From contig JAZQTD010000048.1 of NCBI GenBank assembly GCA_045630455.1, forward strand, positions 1,828-65,827: 64,000 bases of DNA, given 5' to 3'. Shown one piece after another: positions 1-26,165 of the stretch. Origin of the DNA: Candidatus Enterousia sp. Its GTDB lineage: Bacteria; Pseudomonadota; Alphaproteobacteria; Rs-D84. Position 1 is the stretch's first letter; each line of letters starts with the position of its first letter. A program made the translations under genes and the position numbers. Below the pieces are notes generated by a model. That model had not been told where the DNA came from. It was given only the letters and a program-made list of their open reading frames with translations, and did not search any database.

Positions 1-1047
1 CAGGATGGTGCAATTTCTGACTTTGATTTTCTGATTGATAAGATGAAGCAGAATCGTGTTGTCGAACAACAGGTGGTAAATATTGTGCCAATTGCTGAAG
101 GGCAGGTTATGGCAACCGCAAATGGTAATAATACCGGTGCCATGATACGTGGCATCAGAATGCCTGATTTGATTGCTAAGTCCCAGGCGGGAACCCGTGT
201 ATATGGTAAGCCGTTGACCGAGATTGTCGATGGTGAATTGGTTGCAGGGGCTTCGTTGACGCGCGCGCTGAAGGTGACAATGGGGGATAATATTTCATTG
301 GTGTCTGCGAATAACGCGACACCAACACCATTTGGTTCAATGCCACGTATTATGTCGTATCCTGTGAAAAGTTCATTTTTTATGGGGATGTACGAATATG
401 ATTCAGGGTATATTTTTATGCCACTGGAAACCGCACAAAAATATTTAAATATTGGTAATGCAGTTACGCATATTGATTTGTTCCTGCGTAATCCCGAAGA
501 AACAAAGCCTGTTCTGGAAAGTTTGGCGCGTTTGTTGCCTGATGGTTTTGTCGTACGCGATTGGCGCGATTTAAATCGAGGCTTTGTTGGGGCGTTGCAG
601 GTTGAATCAAATGTTATGTTTTTAATATTAATGTTAATTGTTATTGTTGCGGCGTTTAACATTGTTTCCAGTTTGGTTATGCTGGTTAAAGATAAAAACA
701 AAGATATTGCGGTTTTGCGTACTTTTGGTGTGTCGCGTAAATCTATGATGAAGATATTTATTTTGTCTGGAACCTCAATTGGGGCAATTGGTGCGTTCTT
801 TGGAACAATACTGGGGGTTTTGATTGCGATTTATGTGGAACCAATTCGTCAGTTTTTTCAATGGTTGACAGGGCGTGATTTATTCCCGGCGGAATTGTAT
901 TATTTGTCAGAGTTACCATCAAAGTTGGTTTGGACAGATGTTTTGGGAATTGCGTTGATTGCGGTGTTGTTGGCGTGTCTGGCAACATTGTACCCGGCGT
1001 GGAAGGCGGCAAATACAGACCCGGTTGAGGTGTTAAGAAATGAGTAA
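1..1047 (+). CDS. lolC: Lipoprotein-releasing ABC transporter permease, LolC/LolE family (5' end outside window)
   Basis: Frame 1 is open from nt 1 into the listed ORF 43..1047. C-terminal FtsX-type permease region with hydrophobic helices (FLILMLIVIVAAFNIVSSLVML, ILSGTSIGAIGAFFGTILGVLIAIYV, LGIALIAVLLACLATLYPAW). A lolD-like ATPase follows. Confidence 0.8.
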   Translation, partial: QDGAISDFDFLIDKMKQNRVVEQQVVNIVPIAEGQVMATANGNNTGAMIRGIRMPDLIAKSQAGTRVYGKPLTEIVDGELVAGASLTRALKVTMGDNISLVSANNATPTPFGSMPRIMSYPVKSSFFMGMYEYDSGYIFMPLETAQKYLNIGNAVTHIDLFLRNPEETKPVLESLARLLPDGFVVRDWRDLNRGFVGALQVESNVMFLILMLIVIVAAFNIVSSLVMLVKDKNKDIAVLRTFGVSRKSMMKIFILSGTSIGAIGAFFGTILGVLIAIYVEPIRQFFQWLTGRDLFPAELYYLSELPSKLVWTDVLGIALIAVLLACLATLYPAWKAANTDPVEVLRNE

Positions 1048-1258
1048 TAAAAAGACAAGTTTTGATGATGCCAATTTCAAGGTTGTGCTTAAAAAGTTTT
1101 TGCGCGATTGGTCTGCGATAGAGTATGAAGATAATCCGCGGTATCAAAATTTGAAGTTTGGGCATTTTACAACACCGGAACATTATGAAGCCTTGTTGGT
1201 CGCGGAACAACAAATTCAACAGATAGAGCAAGCAAAACAAAACAACGGAAAAGAATAA
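1040..1258 (+). CDS. Hypothetical 72-aa protein filling the lolC-lolD gap
   Basis: The ORF fills the whole 211-nt gap. It overlaps the lolC stop by 8 nt and its TAA abuts the lolD ATG (TAAATG at 1256..1261). No recognisable domain. Confidence 0.45.
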   Translation: MSNKKTSFDDANFKVVLKKFLRDWSAIEYEDNPRYQNLKFGHFTTPEHYEALLVAEQQIQQIEQAKQNNGKE

Positions 1259-1969
1259 ATGGCGAATATTTTGAATTCTTTGTCAAAGGTGCATTCGGCA
1301 GACGTAGTTATGTCGGTGCGTGATATTAAACGGACCTTTGTAGAAGGGGGGCAGCCTTTGCATATTTTGCGTGGTGGTGGGTTTGATTTGCATCGCGGGG
1401 AAATTATTGCGCTGGTTGGACAGTCGGGGTCGGGAAAATCGACCTTGTTGCAATGTGTTGGATTGCTGGATAAGCCCAGTTCTGGCAGTATTTTAATTAA
1501 TGGGGCCGCTGTTCAAAAGATGGATGAAGATATGCGTACACAAATTCGCAGAAATAAAATAGGCTTTGTGTATCAGCGACATAATTTATTGTCGGACTTT
1601 ACGGCACTGGAAAACGTTATGTTACCGATGCTGGCCAATGGGGTGGATGAAAATGTTGCGCGCGCGCGCGCAATAAAACTGTTGAAATCTGCAAATGTGG
1701 CACATCGTGCATCACATTTACCGGGTGAAATGTCGGGCGGGGAACAGCAACGTACTGCGGTTGCGCGGGCGCTGGCAAATAATCCTGATATATTGTTGGC
1801 CGATGAACCAACGGGCAGTTTGGACCCGCAACATGCGACGGCTGTGTTTGATTTGTTGTTGGACTTGGTTCGTAAGAACAAGATGGCAATGTTGTTCGTT
1901 ACGCATGATATGAATCTGGCAGCGCGTGCAGATAAAAAAATTACAATTGACAATGGGATTGTTATATAG
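1259..1969 (+). CDS. lolD: Lipoprotein-releasing system ATP-binding protein LolD
   Basis: ABC ATPase motifs: Walker A GQSGSGKST, signature MSGGEQQR, Walker B ILLADEPTGSLD, H-loop VTHD. Operon context with lolC. Confidence 0.85.
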   Translation: MANILNSLSKVHSADVVMSVRDIKRTFVEGGQPLHILRGGGFDLHRGEIIALVGQSGSGKSTLLQCVGLLDKPSSGSILINGAAVQKMDEDMRTQIRRNKIGFVYQRHNLLSDFTALENVMLPMLANGVDENVARARAIKLLKSANVAHRASHLPGEMSGGEQQRTAVARALANNPDILLADEPTGSLDPQHATAVFDLLLDLVRKNKMAMLFVTHDMNLAARADKKITIDNGIVI

Positions 1970-2006
1970 TGTAATATAATCATTAATGATAACAGGAGAG
2001 GGGAAT

Positions 2007-3041
2007 ATGAAAAAATCACAAGATGTTCGTGTTAAACATACCAAATCACAACGTGTTTGGGGAATATTAGCGTTGGTGGCACTGTTTGCATGCGGTGTTA
2101 TGGTTGGTTTGGATTTTGGCAGATTGAATTCCCGTCCAAAACCGGCGGATGGTATTGGTGTTAAGTTTAGTCCAAATGCAAATATTGATTTTACCGATAT
2201 AAACGTTGGTGAAACAAAAACACATAATGTTCATGTGGCTGTGAGTTCAAAACTGGATACTTTGGTTGTTAAACCAATTGATGGTATCAGCGGTTTGAAA
2301 ATTACAAATGACTGTGCGGATATTGCGCGTGTTAATGAAAAGGCAGGTTGTGACATTGTTGTTGAATATACCCCACGTGTTGCACAGGATTTAGGGCGTG
2401 TGTCATTAATTGTTGGATGGGCAGACGCATCTGGTGAAGAATTTGTTGCAGAATTGCCAATTTTGATTAAGGTGACAGACCCAAATCAAAAACCGACATG
2501 TGTTGTTATCGAAGAATTGTTGGCGCAAAGATTATACCCAGAAGCTTCACAAGAAGTATGGGAACATGAAGAAAACATCAAAATTTATGAAAAAATGGTT
2601 ATGAATGGTTGTTCAGAAAACCAGTTGAAAAATCATAAGATGGCCCAGCGTGAACGTGAAATATTGGCGGCGCTGCAACAATCAGGTACTGTTCAGCAAA
2701 CATGTGAACAAATTGAAGAATTGTTGTTGAAACAGTTGCCAGGTCCAGACGGAGATGCAGAATATCGTATTATGCGTGCAAAAATCTATGCTAATTTGTC
2801 TGAACGTGGGTGCCCAGCAAACAGTGCAAAATATGTGGACCAGGCAAAGCAAGAGTTGGAAATCGCGCGTGCGTTGGAAGATGATGAATTTGATAATGAT
2901 GAAACAATCGAGGTTGTTGAAACATATAAACGTTTGAATATGCAGGCGGCCGCTGAAGAAATATTTGAAACAGCTAAAAAATTAACAAATCCGGCAATTG
3001 ATTTCATTTTGGAAGTTGAAAAAATAATTAACGAACAATAA
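2007..3041 (+). CDS. Hypothetical membrane-anchored/secreted protein with beta-rich N-domain and two internal two-Cys repeats
   Basis: ORF track gives 1986..3041. The ATG at 2007 follows AGGAGAGGGG. N-terminal hydrophobic helix WGILALVALFACGVMVGL. Repeats TCVVIEELLAQRL...IYEKMVMNGC and TCEQIEELLLKQL...IYANLSERGC. Confidence 0.6.
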   Translation: MKKSQDVRVKHTKSQRVWGILALVALFACGVMVGLDFGRLNSRPKPADGIGVKFSPNANIDFTDINVGETKTHNVHVAVSSKLDTLVVKPIDGISGLKITNDCADIARVNEKAGCDIVVEYTPRVAQDLGRVSLIVGWADASGEEFVAELPILIKVTDPNQKPTCVVIEELLAQRLYPEASQEVWEHEENIKIYEKMVMNGCSENQLKNHKMAQREREILAALQQSGTVQQTCEQIEELLLKQLPGPDGDAEYRIMRAKIYANLSERGCPANSAKYVDQAKQELEIARALEDDEFDNDETIEVVETYKRLNMQAAAEEIFETAKKLTNPAIDFILEVEKIINEQ

Positions 3042-3053
3042 CGGGGTGCGCAG

Positions 3054-3647
3054 ATGAAATTTCTGATTATATTATTGGGAATTGTTACGGTGACTTCAAG
3101 CTTTGCGGATGAGGTTGCAGGTGTTGCGGTACGTATGACATGCGCTGAGATTAATTCAATGATTTCTGAATTATCCGCAGTAGAAGAGCCCGATACAGAT
3201 ACAATTGATGAATTGACCAAGTTAAAGGCCGATTATCGTCGCAGCTGTTCGCGTGCCGCGCGTGGACGTAAGACGTCGGCTAGTTCGCGTGTGGTTGTTG
3301 CCGAAGCGGTGGTGACGACAGAGGATGAACTGCAGACAGAAAACGACGAAAAAGATGTCAAGGCAGCCGACGTTGTTTTGGAGTCTCAATCTGAATCACA
3401 GCCAGAAGATGAAGAAGAAGTTGTGGGTCTTGAAGAAGAGGTTGTTGAAGAAGAAACTGTCCAGGGGCCAACGGAAGAAGAACTGTTGGAGCAGGAGTTA
3501 GCAAATCTGGATGCTGGTTTATGTGTGGATGGAACAAAACCAAATAAATATGGTTGTTGTACTGACGAACTGTTCAAGGATTTAGGAAATACTGTTTTTG
3601 CGTGTTGTCCCAAGGATGGGGGAGATTGTTTCCCGCCAATAAAATAG
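3054..3647 (+). CDS. Secreted acidic protein with C-terminal six-Cys domain (GGDCFPPIK)
   Basis: Signal-like N-terminus MKFLIILLGIVTVTSSFA, Glu-rich low-complexity linker, C-terminal GLCVDGTKPNKYGCCTDELFKDLGNTVFACCPKDGGDCFPPIK. Confidence 0.6.
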   Translation: MKFLIILLGIVTVTSSFADEVAGVAVRMTCAEINSMISELSAVEEPDTDTIDELTKLKADYRRSCSRAARGRKTSASSRVVVAEAVVTTEDELQTENDEKDVKAADVVLESQSESQPEDEEEVVGLEEEVVEEETVQGPTEEELLEQELANLDAGLCVDGTKPNKYGCCTDELFKDLGNTVFACCPKDGGDCFPPIK

Positions 3648-3656
3648 GGTGTTTTT

Positions 3657-3899
3657 ATGAAAAAGAATATTAATTTAGCATCAGCGGTTGTTATATCGTT
3701 TGTTTTGGGGTTCGCGTTTGGGGTCTTGGCCCATGCGGGGCGTAATATGTTCTTGTTTGCGGAACCAGGATTGTGTGTGGACGGAACCGAGCCTGATAAG
3801 CACGGTTGTTGCGAAGGGGAATTGTATACTGATATGGGTGATCTTGGGTATAATTGTTGCCCTGAAATCGGTGGGGATTGTTTTCCGCCAATAAAATAG
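3657..3899 (+). CDS. Small secreted protein consisting of signal/anchor plus the same six-Cys domain
   Basis: Hydrophobic N-terminus ASAVVISFVLGFAFGVLAHA, then GLCVDGTEPDKHGCCEGELYTDMGDLGYNCCPEIGGDCFPPIK. 28 of 43 positions are identical to the C-terminus of the upstream gene. Confidence 0.6.
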   Translation: MKKNINLASAVVISFVLGFAFGVLAHAGRNMFLFAEPGLCVDGTEPDKHGCCEGELYTDMGDLGYNCCPEIGGDCFPPIK

Positions 3900-3909
3900 T
3901 TTTTTTAGA

Positions 3910-3935
3910 TAAAAAATCCCCCGATTTGGGGGATT
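3910..3935. terminator. Bidirectional intrinsic terminator (AAAAAATCCCCC-GATTT-GGGGGATTT)
   Basis: GC stem CCCCC/GGGGG flanked by an A-run and a T-run, between convergent genes 3657..3899 (+) and secB (-). Confidence 0.7.
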
Positions 3936-3957
3936 TGTAATACATATGTGTATATAT

Positions 3958-4386
3958 TTATTGTTTTGACTTTTTCTGTTCATACAATTGAGCAAAGTCA
4001 ACTGGCTGCATCGAGAATGCAGGAAAGCCTGATTCAGATGTTAAACGTGTTACCAATGCGCGAACAGATGGGAACAACATTGTGGGTACATCAATCAATA
4101 ATGTGCGTTTTTTGTCTTCTTCGTCTTTTTCCTGTTCCATCTGTACCAGACCAGAATATGTGGATTCAATCAAGAAGATAGATTTGTCGCCAGCATCCAG
4201 TTTTGAATGAATCTTGGTTATAACATCCACTAAAAACAAATTGTTGTCGGCGCCTTTGATTTGGATGTCGATGTTGATTTCCAGTTTTGCCTGGCCGTTA
4301 TCGTTTTTAAAGAATAATTCAGGTACGTTTGGGCTTTCAAAAGAAATGTCTTTCAAGAACTGGGAAATGATATTAAATTTTGCCAT
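3958..4386 (-). CDS. secB: Protein-export chaperone SecB
   Basis: 142 aa. N-terminus MAKFNIISQFLKDISFESPNVPELFF and overall length typical of alphaproteobacterial SecB. Confidence 0.85.
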   Translation of the reverse strand: MAKFNIISQFLKDISFESPNVPELFFKNDNGQAKLEINIDIQIKGADNNLFLVDVITKIHSKLDAGDKSIFLIESTYSGLVQMEQEKDEEDKKRTLLIDVPTMLFPSVRALVTRLTSESGFPAFSMQPVDFAQLYEQKKSKQ

Positions 4387-8272: not shown

Positions 8273-8302
8273 ATGCGCGTACATATACGAAAGGGGACTT
8301 AT

Positions 8303-8800
8303 ATGCGAAAATTGATTGCAGCTTTATTTGCAACTTTGCCATTTAGTGCAATGGCAAATCCAGCGTGTCCAGTATGCACAATCGCAGTTGGCGCAGGTCT
8401 TGATATTGCACGTCGTCTGGGCGTTCCAGACAGTATTGTTGGACTGTGGGCGGGTGCGCTTTTGACTTTGGTTGGGTATTGGACTTTGAAATTTATGGAT
8501 AAAAAGAACTGGCACTTTTGGGGTCGCGATACAATTGTAATATTGCTATCTGTTGCAATGATTGGTTTTGTTTATATGGGGGCGGTACAATATGCGCCAA
8601 CACCTATTTGTGGTATGTTCACAATGGACCCTGTGTTGTTCGGCACAATTTGTGGTGCGCTGATATTTATTGGTACTGGGAAACTGTACCAATGGATGAA
8701 GGCAAAAAATGGTGGACACGCACACTTTCCATTTGAAAAAGTTGTATTGCCAATTGTTGCGCTTGCGTTGGCCAGTTGGGCGATGATTGCTTGTTTATAA
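8303..8800 (+). CDS. Hypothetical polytopic membrane protein
   Basis: The ORF-track start at 8273 lies inside the predicted promoter. The ATG at 8303 has an RBS. Signal-like MRKLIAALFATLPFSAMA, CPVC motif, about four hydrophobic helices. Confidence 0.6.
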   Translation: MRKLIAALFATLPFSAMANPACPVCTIAVGAGLDIARRLGVPDSIVGLWAGALLTLVGYWTLKFMDKKNWHFWGRDTIVILLSVAMIGFVYMGAVQYAPTPICGMFTMDPVLFGTICGALIFIGTGKLYQWMKAKNGGHAHFPFEKVVLPIVALALASWAMIACL

Positions 8801-23209: not shown

Positions 23210-25630
23210 CTATTCCAAAGCCCCTTGTTTTTTCAGGTATTCATTTACAAAATTATTTCCATACATTTTGTATAATTCTTCTGCCAATAATACAGACGAA
23301 CGCCCCGACTCAAACAACCGCAACATATTCCCCAAGCCGCCCAATTCAGTATTCAAAATCACAGATTCCCCATTAACTGGACGCGATAATAATACCGCAC
23401 GTTTCAGATTTGGATACGCCTTGCCTTGAATAAACGCCATTTCCAATGGATTCAAGTTCCAGTGTTCATAATCACGTGCATCTGCCGCCGGATTGCGGAA
23501 GAATAATACCGTCTGAGCCTGACCACGAACTACGTCCCCAATCCCCAGTTTATCTAAAACATTTGCACGCTGGAACGCCGCCATATAAGCCTGACGATTT
23601 TTACGCCCTTCTTGTAGACCTGCTATAAAATTATCGCGGAACATCTTGTTTTCCAACATAGGTGCAGTCTCGTCAATCATAATCAATGACGGATTTCCAC
23701 CAGATACAGTTGTATTATTAATACGATGCAAGATATAAGAAATAACCGCCGGCGACAATACTTCGTCTTGCAGAATTTCTGTAAAATCGAACGTAGTCAG
23801 ACGCGATTGCAAATCCAACGTATCTTCTTTTTCGTTGAACATAAACCCATATTGCAACGGATCAACCCACTTTTTAAGTGCTGGTCGCATCTCACCCGCA
23901 GACGAGAAACAACTTTCCCATAAATTAGTTAACAATCTATCTTTTTCCGACAGATAGTCAAAATTAACCGATACCGCACGCGCAATTTCATCGGCTGATT
24001 TCGGATCATTTTGCCCCGTTATAATAGAAAACCAGCGACGCAAGAATGCACGATTTGCTGCACTATCTGGCATCAACAATGGATTAAGGTGTGTTTGGAA
24101 AATATTTGCCATTGGGTCAGTATTTTTCTCTTTCCCTTGCATTGTTATATATTTCCCACCTACGGCCAGAGTAAATATTTCCGCCCCTTTATTTCTATCA
24201 AAAAAGAATGCTTTTAATTTAGGAAAACGTAAACTCTGTGCGATTAAGAACGAGAACAATGTTGTCTTACCACCACCAGTTGGACCAATTGTCAATGTAT
24301 GTCCCACTGCCGCCGGTTTATCAGATACATGGAATTGGAATTGATACGGTGTCCCCTGGGCGGTCGGGAAAACAACCAGCGGCCCTGCCCCCCAATCTGA
24401 ATTTGCAACACCACGTGGAGTGCTGGACATCGGAATACTGATTGCAGCCGTTTTTGATAATAACTTAAAACTGCGTGGAAACACATTAAAACCAGGAATT
24501 TGTGAAAACCAAGCAACTTTAGATGCAAAAGTTTCCACCACAGGCGAAATACCAAACGAAGCGGCGATTTTCTTGAATTCTGCAATATATTTTTGCAACT
24601 CATCAATTGTTGCACCAAAAATCAAGAACAGCGGATAATAATTCACTAACGTCTGATTTCCAGAAACATTTTCATCCATTGCGGATTCCATTGCATAAAT
24701 CTGCTCTTCTGTCGATTTTTGAACCTTTTCATCAGCTGTTGAACGGCGCTGACGTATTGTAGCCTCAACATCCGCCGCCCCCATAATACCAAAACCATTC
24801 ATACAAATCATTTCTGTCTGGATTGTAGAAATAGTGTCATAAAATTCTTCGTCCAGATAGTCCGGTGAAATCTTGAAAGACAATGCTGCTGCAAAAGTTT
24901 GTGCCCCGCCACTAATATACCTAATTACACCATCGCGCATAAATTCAACATCATCAACAGTTACTAAATTTGAAATGCTGTTATTACATGTTTTTGGCTG
25001 TGGTTTAGTAATTGGTGATAAAATCCGTCCAAAGAACCGTGCCATATTATCTGGTGTATTATTTTTTAACACACTTGGTTTATATGCCGCCAATATAGAT
25101 TCTATATAATTTCCACACTGATTTAACTTAGTACGTGCATCTGCCCCACCAACAGACACAACAATATAATAATTATTCAAGAATATACGTAATCCCTGAC
25201 TTTTCCATTTATCATAAATTCTCTGTAATGTCGGTTGGTCAAATTCATAATTTGTATTTTCATCCATCGCATCACGCACCATATAGAAACGTAAAGTTAC
25301 ATTTGGATCACGAATTTGATTAAATAATTGCGCACGCAAATCCAAGAATTTTTCTTTGGTTTTATCGTCCTGCATACTGGTCTGTAGCCCTTGGACACGA
25401 TATGCACGAATAAGTGTTCCATCCGTTAATTCAATAGAATTGTCAGAAAACACCGTTTTGAATGGCAAATAATTAGCATATTTTGCATAGCCAAATCGCG
25501 GAAAAATCCGCTTGGTCAACGCCGGCACATACATCATCATCCCAAGAAACACAAAAATCACCGCCATAACCATAATAGTTGTGGTCACTATAAATTCACC
25601 GCCTGCAAAATATTCAAAAAAACTATTCAT
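23210..25630 (-). CDS. virB4: Type IV secretion system ATPase VirB4/TraC family
   Basis: 806 aa. Walker A GPTGGGKTT, Walker B LIMIDETAPM. Preceded by a virB3-like gene. Confidence 0.85.
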   Translation of the reverse strand: MNSFFEYFAGGEFIVTTTIMVMAVIFVFLGMMMYVPALTKRIFPRFGYAKYANYLPFKTVFSDNSIELTDGTLIRAYRVQGLQTSMQDDKTKEKFLDLRAQLFNQIRDPNVTLRFYMVRDAMDENTNYEFDQPTLQRIYDKWKSQGLRIFLNNYYIVVSVGGADARTKLNQCGNYIESILAAYKPSVLKNNTPDNMARFFGRILSPITKPQPKTCNNSISNLVTVDDVEFMRDGVIRYISGGAQTFAAALSFKISPDYLDEEFYDTISTIQTEMICMNGFGIMGAADVEATIRQRRSTADEKVQKSTEEQIYAMESAMDENVSGNQTLVNYYPLFLIFGATIDELQKYIAEFKKIAASFGISPVVETFASKVAWFSQIPGFNVFPRSFKLLSKTAAISIPMSSTPRGVANSDWGAGPLVVFPTAQGTPYQFQFHVSDKPAAVGHTLTIGPTGGGKTTLFSFLIAQSLRFPKLKAFFFDRNKGAEIFTLAVGGKYITMQGKEKNTDPMANIFQTHLNPLLMPDSAANRAFLRRWFSIITGQNDPKSADEIARAVSVNFDYLSEKDRLLTNLWESCFSSAGEMRPALKKWVDPLQYGFMFNEKEDTLDLQSRLTTFDFTEILQDEVLSPAVISYILHRINNTTVSGGNPSLIMIDETAPMLENKMFRDNFIAGLQEGRKNRQAYMAAFQRANVLDKLGIGDVVRGQAQTVLFFRNPAADARDYEHWNLNPLEMAFIQGKAYPNLKRAVLLSRPVNGESVILNTELGGLGNMLRLFESGRSSVLLAEELYKMYGNNFVNEYLKKQGALE

Positions 25631-25638
25631 TTTTCAAC

Positions 25639-25935
25639 CTATGCCGCTAATCTGTTTGGTATTTTTTTCTTCATTAATTGAATTTTTGCCGAAATAATTT
25701 GTCCAATTTGTGGGTCACGCTTTGAATAAATTGCCAATAAAGAATGCACAATAATAACCGATACCAAGAAATAAAGCGGACTAACATTTGAATTTGTGCC
25801 TTTAATCAGCAAACTGGCCACAAAAATAATGATAAATATAATGAATTGCACTGCAAAATTCAAAACGGCCAACGAATACGGCACATAAAATATGCGCGCC
25901 GGATTTGCCAAAGCCTTTAAAACTTGCTGTTTCAT
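25639..25935 (-). CDS. virB3: Type IV secretion system protein VirB3-like
   Basis: 98 aa from Met 25935 (MKQQVLKALANPARIFYVPYSLAVLNFAVQFIIFIIIFV), with two hydrophobic segments, 8 nt upstream of virB4. ORF track extends to 26037. Confidence 0.6.
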   Translation of the reverse strand: MKQQVLKALANPARIFYVPYSLAVLNFAVQFIIFIIIFVASLLIKGTNSNVSPLYFLVSVIIVHSLLAIYSKRDPQIGQIISAKIQLMKKKIPNRLAA

Positions 25936-25964
25936 CTCTCTTTTGTCCCTATGTATTTGAATTA

Positions 25965-26165
25965 TAACAATTTCAACAATTTTCAACAAGCACAAAAACA
26001 AATTCAAAAAAATTGTTAATTGTGTTAAAAAAAGCAAACTTTTTAACAGTTAATTTAACAGGTGTATTTCTCAACAGTTCTAACAAAACGCCCCAGAAAT
26101 CCTGCAAATAATTGTTAAAAAACGGTTGATAAAAAGTTTATAAAAGTTTTCAACAATTTCAACAG
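25965..26165. repeat. Cluster of T(T/C)AACA(A/G) heptamers including two phased doublets
   Basis: Copies at 25965, 25973, 25983, 26013(rc), 26043, 26055, 26071, 26080, 26112(rc), 26150 and 26159. Exact 13-mer AACAATTTCAACA at 25966..25978 and 26152..26164. Confidence 0.5.

Follow-up and report, generated by a model that had tools for sequence, protein, structure and literature searches.

A 64,000-nucleotide stretch of a Candidatus Enterousia sp. genome (assembly GCA_045630455.1, contig JAZQTD010000048.1, positions 1,828 to 65,827 of the forward strand; the window in what follows) holds two adjacent genes, here called 'a' and 'b', that both close with a 43-residue domain containing six cysteines. 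The 197 amino acid product of 'a' ends with GLCVDGTKPNKYGCCTDELFKDLGNTVFACCPKDGGDCFPPIK and the 80 amino acid product of 'b' with GLCVDGTEPDKHGCCEGELYTDMGDLGYNCCPEIGGDCFPPIK, and both copies terminate in GGDCFPPIK immediately before the stop codon. BLASTP aligns the two domains without gaps at 28 of 43 identities and E = 3e-21, so that their likeness is far beyond chance. A first-pass annotation, made by reading the letters alone, had described this pair with the framework C-x10-CC-x14-CC-x6-C, and its coordinates, sequences and cysteine framework are all exactly as it claimed. The interpretation it attached holds in part, but a disulfide-knotted mini-protein in the style of toxins or defensins is not supported: the 43 residues form a C-terminal domain family that had not been described before, is restricted to one lineage and is carried also by large envelope proteins.

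A profile built from six copies of the domain was searched against 1.84 billion cluster representatives and returned 267 proteins at E <= 1e-3 and 137 at E <= 1e-10. The cysteines, on whose conservation the first-pass reading depended, are retained: the six-cysteine framework is whole in 147 of 150 representatives, the three exceptions look truncated, and the loops are overwhelmingly of the 10/14/6 type. Of the 150 best matches, 148 have only 0–6 residues after the domain, 14 carry two copies and one carries three. In an alignment of 148 sequences the six cysteines, the glycine before the first CC pair, the glutamate three residues after it and the proline in the CFPP tail are invariant, and several proline, glycine, aspartate and phenylalanine positions are conserved to at least 90 %. 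We also agree with the first-pass annotation that no named family can be recognised here. Pfam and NCBIfam searches of the window proteins and their paralogues gave no match for the domain, and the full proteins no Granulin match at E <= 1. At a permissive E <= 10, the 148 domain copies drew only stray Pfam hits (DUF2650 in five copies, Tetraspanin in two and Granulin in one, the latter at E = 0.67), and the profile, run at the same threshold against every sequence in the PDB, returned zero matches.

Two subtypes can be told apart. Type A, with the consensus ...PNK[FY]GCC..E.FKD[LM]GN.VFACCP..., is found on 'a' proteins only, while type B, with ...PD.NGCC.GE.YTDMG..GFNCCP..., occurs on 'b', on VirB10 homologues, on a protein of ~700 amino acids and internally in the fused 'a' proteins. 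An amphipathic helix with a consensus of about E-E-L-x-x-E-L-A-N-L-D-A-G precedes every type-A but not the type-B domains, and AlphaFold predicts this helix before the A domain of a paralogue; the functional type-A unit therefore probably spans ~60 residues rather than 43. Pairwise ratios of nonsynonymous to synonymous substitution (dN/dS, NG86 method) have medians of 0.10 for type A (44 copies) and 0.13 for type B (56 copies), which places the domain under strong purifying selection.

The features of the locus and further genes of the same genome that bear on the domain are collected in Table 1.

Table 1. Features at the 'a'-'b' locus and related genes of the source genome. Positions refer to the window unless a contig (C26, C30) is given.
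Feature	Position	Strand	Description
lolE (lolC/E-type permease)	1–1047 (5' end cut by window)	+	Opens the conserved string; by tblastn upstream of orf351 and 'a' in 76/80 loci
72-aa open reading frame, variable	1040–1258	+	Between lolE and lolD; detected in only 6/80 related loci
lolD-like ABC ATPase	1259–1969	+	Upstream of orf351 in 77/80 loci
orf351, membrane-anchored	1986–3041	+	Ig-like (ASH/choice-of-anchor-D-like) module, then helical Cys-containing modules; in 79/80 loci
Gene 'a', exported, acidic	3054–3647	+	Signal peptide, two-Cys N-domain, ~100-aa acidic linker, short helix, type-A domain
Amphipathic helix of 'a'	3462–3515	+	Precedes the type-A domain
Type-A six-Cys domain	3516–3644	+	C-x10-CC-x14-CC-x6-C, GGDCFPPIK-stop
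Gene 'b'	3657–3899	+	80 aa; membrane-anchor-like helix (about aa 7–25) and type-B domain
Type-B six-Cys domain	3768–3896	+	YTDMG..G[FY]NCCP signature, also on VirB10-like and ~700-aa carriers
G+C-rich hairpin	3914–3936		Bidirectional terminator-like; flanked by T/A runs; between 'b' (+) and secB (-)
secB	3958–4386	-	PF02556 at 2.4e-32; convergent to 'b'
CPVC-motif membrane protein	8273–8800	+	175 aa, four predicted helices
virB4-like	23210–25630	-	806 aa; PF03135 at 1e-13
virB3-like	25639–26037	-	132 aa; PF05101 at 2.1e-6
VirB9/CagX-like	C26:40932–42461	-	C-terminal SPOR match
DsbA family	C30:24604–25503	+	CGYC motif; N-terminal membrane helices

Genes 'a' and 'b' stand at the end of a conserved string of closely spaced genes that we followed through 80 loci of a species-genome collection, whose records name Candidatus Enterousia or unclassified Alphaproteobacteria or Rickettsiales metagenome-assembled genomes from the gut of goat, sheep, yak, deer, buffalo, chicken and human. 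A typical Enterousia lolD-orf351-'a' locus also occurs on a contig deposited as 'Bacteroides fragilis isolate ... cleanbin' (CAVGNU010000015.1); this record is probably mis-binned or mislabelled. Orthologues of 'a' were detected in 68–79 of the 80 loci, lolE, lolD and orf351 precede it in 76–79, and the downstream genes vary. The assignment of the first gene to the LolC/E permeases is based on the appearance of its sequence and on synteny with lolD. The 72-residue open reading frame between them has no Pfam or NCBIfam match, and in a metagenome contig from one run (X1) its region is replaced by 510 different letters, with the joint at 1138/1160; it is a variable insert and not a conserved Lol component. 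The product of orf351 combines a membrane helix with weak ASH and choice_anch_D matches in Pfam and NCBIfam, and its residues 66–145 align to the N-terminal Ig-like module of the VirB10-like protein encoded in the same genome (BLASTP E = 8e-10).

The two domain types are distributed over this locus in a complementary manner. An orthologous small 'b' gene stands directly 3' of a single-A 'a' gene in 48 loci, 17 loci, all lacking a 'b' gene, encode a fused 'a' protein with an internal B and a terminal A domain, and ten have a single-A 'a' gene with no adjacent 'b' (fused B-A versus separate 'b': Fisher p = 3e-10, uncorrected for shared ancestry). The pattern suggests that a B module comes either in cis or from the adjacent gene, and because of this complementarity we propose that A and B act together. 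Contigs from one run labelled RNA-Seq (bovine gut metatranscriptome) match orf351, 'a' and 'b' in part, the last of these at its 3' end, with an identity of 99 % or more, which is weak evidence of transcription as DNA carry-over is possible. In contigs of two runs the T-run that follows the 'b' stop codon is one T longer (3899–3900), so that the terminator region varies in length between strains.

The source assembly (1.2 Mb, 42 % G+C, 48 contigs, 94 % complete) encodes six copies of the domain in five proteins, all of them C-terminal except for one internal copy. Besides 'a' and 'b', these are a 220-residue 'a'-like protein on contig C44 with an internal type-B and a terminal type-A copy, and a 792-residue protein on contig C26 and a 697-residue protein on contig C30 with one terminal copy each. 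The 792-residue carrier is a TrbI/VirB10 homologue (PF03743 at 3.9e-16, 59.9 bits against a cut-off of 35) with an N-terminal ASH-like module, and its gene is preceded by genes with VirB8 (PF04335) and CagX/VirB9 (PF03524) matches. The genes for VirB3- and VirB4-like proteins lie in the window amid lpxC, lpxK, ychF and dnaG, far from virB8-virB9-virB10, so the type IV secretion system (T4SS) is chromosomal and scattered among housekeeping genes. The 697-residue carrier consists of a cytoplasmic coiled-coil half, for which Pfam and PDB searches gave coiled-coil noise only, one membrane helix, a stretch of ~170 residues rich in Pro, Glu and Val, and the domain. Four carrier types can thus be distinguished: VirB10/TrbI of ~800 amino acids, which is the most widespread, the bitopic protein of ~700, the exported acidic 'a' of ~200 and 'b' of ~80.

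One property of the assembly bears on the copy number. A segment of contig C44 (C44:63800–102373) holds second copies of lolE, lolD, the C-terminus of orf351, 'a', secB, mltA, ruvC and an outer-membrane-protein-like gene, with 67–88 % protein identity to C48:1–9422, which corresponds to window position 1 to ~7600; six of the pairs are of housekeeping type, and almost no duplication is seen in the genome outside this C44/C48 segment. Public runs that contain the first 5.9 kb of the window (1–5.9 kb) at 95 % identity or more lack 5.9–11.5 kb, tRNAs excepted. Either two Enterousia species were mixed in the bin or in the contig, the join possibly lying near the tRNA at ~7.5 kb, or the segmental duplication is real. 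Given this duplication, the number of domain copies per organism is to be taken as 3–4 instead of 6; our other conclusions are independent of the question.

The domain is not confined to Enterousia. A scan of 328 genomes of the order Rs-D84 with the 148-sequence profile found it in 299 of them, in all 18 genera of the like-named family to which the window belongs and in none of the 12 genera of the other families, which overturned a restriction to the genus Enterousia in favour of a family-wide one. Carriers number 2–6 per genome. In the 17 genera other than Enterousia, the top-scoring carrier of most genomes is a protein of ~765–905 amino acids, and TrbI was confirmed in all four carriers tested from these genera (63–72 bits). 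Many of these genomes also encode a carrier of ~620–750 amino acids. The short carriers 'a' and 'b' occur almost exclusively in Enterousia. In each of the 12 genera that were sampled first across the order, VirB10 has a single copy. At the six loci examined in sister families, VirB10 ends in an acidic tail that contains neither the domain nor cysteines. The simplest history is that VirB10 gained the domain in the ancestor of the family and that it was later copied to other envelope proteins.

How the carriers present the domain can be judged from their N-termini. That of 'a' is short and resembles a signal peptide (MKFLIILLGIVTVTSSFA), and 'b' consists of a basic N-terminus, a 19-residue uncharged helix, a tether of ~12 residues and the domain. 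Among the representatives, the median length of this uncharged stretch is 21 amino acids in 'b'-type proteins versus 12 in 'a'-type proteins, and the 'b'-type tether to the first cysteine measures 5–35 residues. Since the uncharged run of ~19–21 residues contrasts with the 12 residues of the exported 'a' family, 'b' is probably not cleaved, and the free peptide of roughly 50 residues foreseen in the first-pass annotation gives way to another topology: the sequence suggests that 'b' is a bitopic membrane protein presenting its domain at the periplasmic face. The idea that 'b' is a lipoprotein, raised by its neighbours, the Lol genes for lipoprotein sorting, was rejected as none of the homologues inspected has a lipobox before the first cysteine.

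These topologies bear directly on the proposal of a secreted disulfide-knotted toxin, defensin or bacteriocin-like peptide, by which 'b' would be cut after AHA to ~53 residues, 'a' would be a larger precursor, and the target would be a host or competitor cell. Such a peptide would account for a six-cysteine framework on small proteins with hydrophobic N-termini, and the AHA-G of the window's 'b' could indeed serve as a signal-peptidase site. AlphaFold predicts a β-hairpin mini-domain for the type-B copy (pLDDT, the per-residue confidence score, of 81.4), and the weak top hits of a Foldseek search were small disulfide-rich peptides. None of these fold matches is significant, however: psalmotoxin led with E = 2.5 and a template-modelling (TM) score of 0.42, the N-terminal subdomain of granulin A (1g26) was listed with a root-mean-square deviation of 2.1 Å over 22 columns and E = 3.8, and the only defensin listed, hBD4, reached E = 4.4 and a TM score of 0.25. 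Of all explanations considered here the toxin is the least compatible with the carrier architectures and with the distribution of the domain; we regard it as the least probable of all.

Whether the six cysteines form disulfides depends on the redox equipment of the periplasm. The genome encodes a membrane-anchored DsbA-family protein with a CGYC motif; neither DsbB (PF02600) nor VKOR (PF07884) was found in the 94 %-complete assembly. The lineage is described as purely fermentative and devoid of respiratory chains (PMC12306168). With DsbB missing, a 175-residue window protein with four predicted membrane helices, an exported CPVC motif and no Pfam match could be a candidate thiol-redox partner. 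Disulfide formation in the domain is plausible from these sequences. The uncertain oxidising power of a fermentative cell equally invites the thought that the six thiolates hold zinc, copper or iron in an anaerobic periplasm, in a structural role or for metal handling. Vicinal cysteine pairs do occur in metallothionein-type sites. We nevertheless consider metal binding quite improbable in view of the encoded CGYC oxidase, of a domain with neither histidine nor the CxxC spacing typical of zinc sites, and of a compact, confidently predicted hairpin akin to disulfide-rich peptides; the source genome presumably also encodes other exported Cys-rich proteins, which argues in the same direction.

The position of the domain at the extreme C-terminus in almost all matches, on otherwise unrelated N-terminal parts, is what would be expected of a sorting or processing tag that a dedicated machine recognises and perhaps removes, following the logic of the C-terminal domain (CTD) of the type IX secretion system (T9SS) or of PEP-CTERM. 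The last residue is carrier-dependent, being K or R on 'a' and 'b', L or I on most Enterousia VirB10 proteins (K in several sister genera) and F or L on the ~700-residue carrier. Sorting tags are, however, usually borne by dozens of proteins per genome rather than 2–6, the fused proteins hold internal copies with 60–95 residues after them, a structural T4SS subunit is among the carriers, and neither a linked sortase-like gene nor an NCBIfam sorting-domain match was found, all of which makes this reading very improbable. The CFPPIK ending had also been considered as a CaaX-type motif or as part of a protease inhibitor (Bowman-Birk or sunflower trypsin inhibitor, BBI/SFTI, 'PPI/CFP'); both were rejected, as the cysteine is the sixth residue counted from the C-terminus and the last residue changes with the carrier.

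The T4SS context brings in an attachment to the cell wall. The VirB9/CagX-like protein of the same system bears a C-terminal SPOR domain (PF05036 at 2.6e-4, at the cut-off), an unusual addition to a VirB9. A hevein-like, aromatic-rich hairpin that binds peptidoglycan or an envelope glycan might in the same way anchor VirB10, along with the remaining carriers, in the sacculus: wall-anchoring additions do occur in this machine, the hairpin has conserved aromatic, Gly, Asp and Glu positions, and the long periplasm-spanning linkers of 'a' and of the ~700-residue carrier would reach the wall. We judge this unlikely, since the 148 members show no match to hevein/CBM18, LysM, SPOR, OmpA or carbohydrate-binding families at E <= 10 and since some 'b' domains start 5–7 residues past the membrane helix, which is too short for the wall.

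Display at the surface was weighed as well. The lineage is predicted to consist of obligate symbionts or parasites that take metabolites from other cells (PMC12306168), and a domain shown outside the outer membrane via or beside the T4SS might bind a partner cell or the host; the T4SS belongs to the core of every genus in the order, and the C-terminal position of the domain and its strong conservation would suit a ligand-binding tip. Against this, the tether of 'b' is short and its helix of inner-membrane type, and a dN/dS of about 0.1 is unusual for exposed tips, which tend to diversify. In VirB10 structures such as that of pKM101 TraF, the C-terminus lies on the periplasmic side. An adhesive tip therefore appears distinctly unlikely.

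All of these explanations are weaker than the one we prefer, tentatively and at a little under an even chance, namely that the domain serves for docking in the periplasm, is stabilised by disulfides, arose on VirB10 and was later acquired by accessory envelope proteins. Its six cysteines would most likely form three disulfides in the periplasm by way of the membrane-anchored DsbA-like oxidase. From VirB10 the domain would have been copied onto the ~700-residue bitopic inner-membrane protein with its Pro/Glu/Val-rich spacer and, within Enterousia, also onto 'a' as type A and onto 'b' as type B. Around the envelope complex of the T4SS it may link the periplasm-facing carriers with one another or with a partner that they have in common, and type A may act together with type B. 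We favour docking because the carriers share a layout of anchor, spacer and small terminal domain, because orf351 has a module in common with VirB10, and because the B modules are supplied in cis or in trans in a complementary way.

Several points weigh against docking. Some 'b' proteins tether the domain 5–7 residues off the membrane, compared with linkers of ~100–200 residues elsewhere, and one fixed partner at one periplasmic height is therefore hard to picture. The Lol genes may be mere neighbours with no functional link, DsbA would have to be re-oxidised in a cell that lacks respiratory chains and in whose genome neither DsbB nor VKOR was found, so that the cysteines could be metal ligands, and the fusion and fission statistic tallies related genomes and not independent events. 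When a natural B-linker-A segment was modelled with AlphaFold, both domains were predicted to fold (pLDDT ~80–84) around a disordered linker (pTM, the global confidence score, of 0.34), and the model neither favours nor rules out packing of A against B. A bolder version, in which A and B are heterotypic 'click' modules that join VirB10, the periplasm-spanning protein and the two tiny accessory proteins into one envelope structure, seems to us unlikely; if true, it would amount to a lineage-specific docking code coupling the T4SS, and perhaps the Lol-linked orf351-'a'-'b' set, into a cell-contact organelle in gut Alphaproteobacteria that have small genomes and depend on partners.

Candidatus Enterousia and related taxa are uncultured and occur widely in the gut of ruminants, poultry and humans, and members of the family have genomes of about 0.6–1.2 Mb. 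Enterousia and relatives, with genomes of ~0.9 Mb, few transporters and no respiration, are believed to subsist on other cells (PMC12306168). Few large machines are retained by all genera of the order, the T4SS among them, and the domain gives a testable point of entry to the way in which these bacteria assemble their apparatus for cell contact. With the domain comes a family of at least 267 clusters (50 % identity) that current databases leave without annotation. It also poses a biochemical puzzle, as a six-cysteine periplasmic domain would have to be oxidised with DsbA in a lineage that has no DsbB, VKOR or quinone-linked respiration.

Compared with known small disulfide-rich domains, the Enterousia domain shares vicinal CC pairs, a 'CCP' motif, the predicted β-hairpin and the small size with Granulin (PF00396), from which it differs by lacking both the hairpin stack with its 12-cysteine pattern C-C-CC-CC-CC-CC-C-C and a profile match. 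Inhibitor cystine knot (knottin) toxins likewise have six cysteines in ~40 residues and supplied the top Foldseek hit, but their C-C-CC-C-C knotted framework (1-4, 2-5, 3-6) is not that of the domain and the fold match is not significant. The α-, β- and CSαβ-defensins differ in cysteine spacing and fold and are free cationic peptides, whereas the domain is acidic to neutral and sits on large proteins. Hevein/CBM18 and other small glycan-binding Cys-rich domains gave no profile match in the Pfam search described above, and sorting domains (T9SS CTD, PEP-CTERM, GlyGly-CTERM, LPXTG) are unlike it in that it has neither an NCBIfam or Pfam match nor a terminal hydrophobic helix. The domain resembles small disulfide-rich hairpin modules in general and can be placed in none of them.

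The principal carrier, as distinct from the domain itself, belongs to the VirB10/TrbI family (PF03743) both by profile and by its virB8-virB9-virB10 context. Lineage-specific decoration of VirB10 homologues is known, for example from Helicobacter CagY with its large Cys-containing repeat region. Unlike such extensions, the decoration described here is a discrete six-cysteine module of 40–45 amino acids at the extreme C-terminus after the TrbI barrel, which is also found on three non-VirB10 proteins and is absent from the VirB10 of sister families. With virB3-virB4 apart from virB8-virB9-virB10 on the chromosome, the system recalls the scattered rvh T4SS of Rickettsiales in its layout. Finally, the domain shows no sequence or fold similarity to the SPOR, OmpA-like and TonB/TolA C-terminal domains and is Cys-rich and much smaller, yet VirB10, the ~700-residue carrier and 'a' follow the same layout as proteins with these domains, in which an anchor or signal peptide is followed by a long Pro- or acid-rich spacer and a small C-terminal domain.

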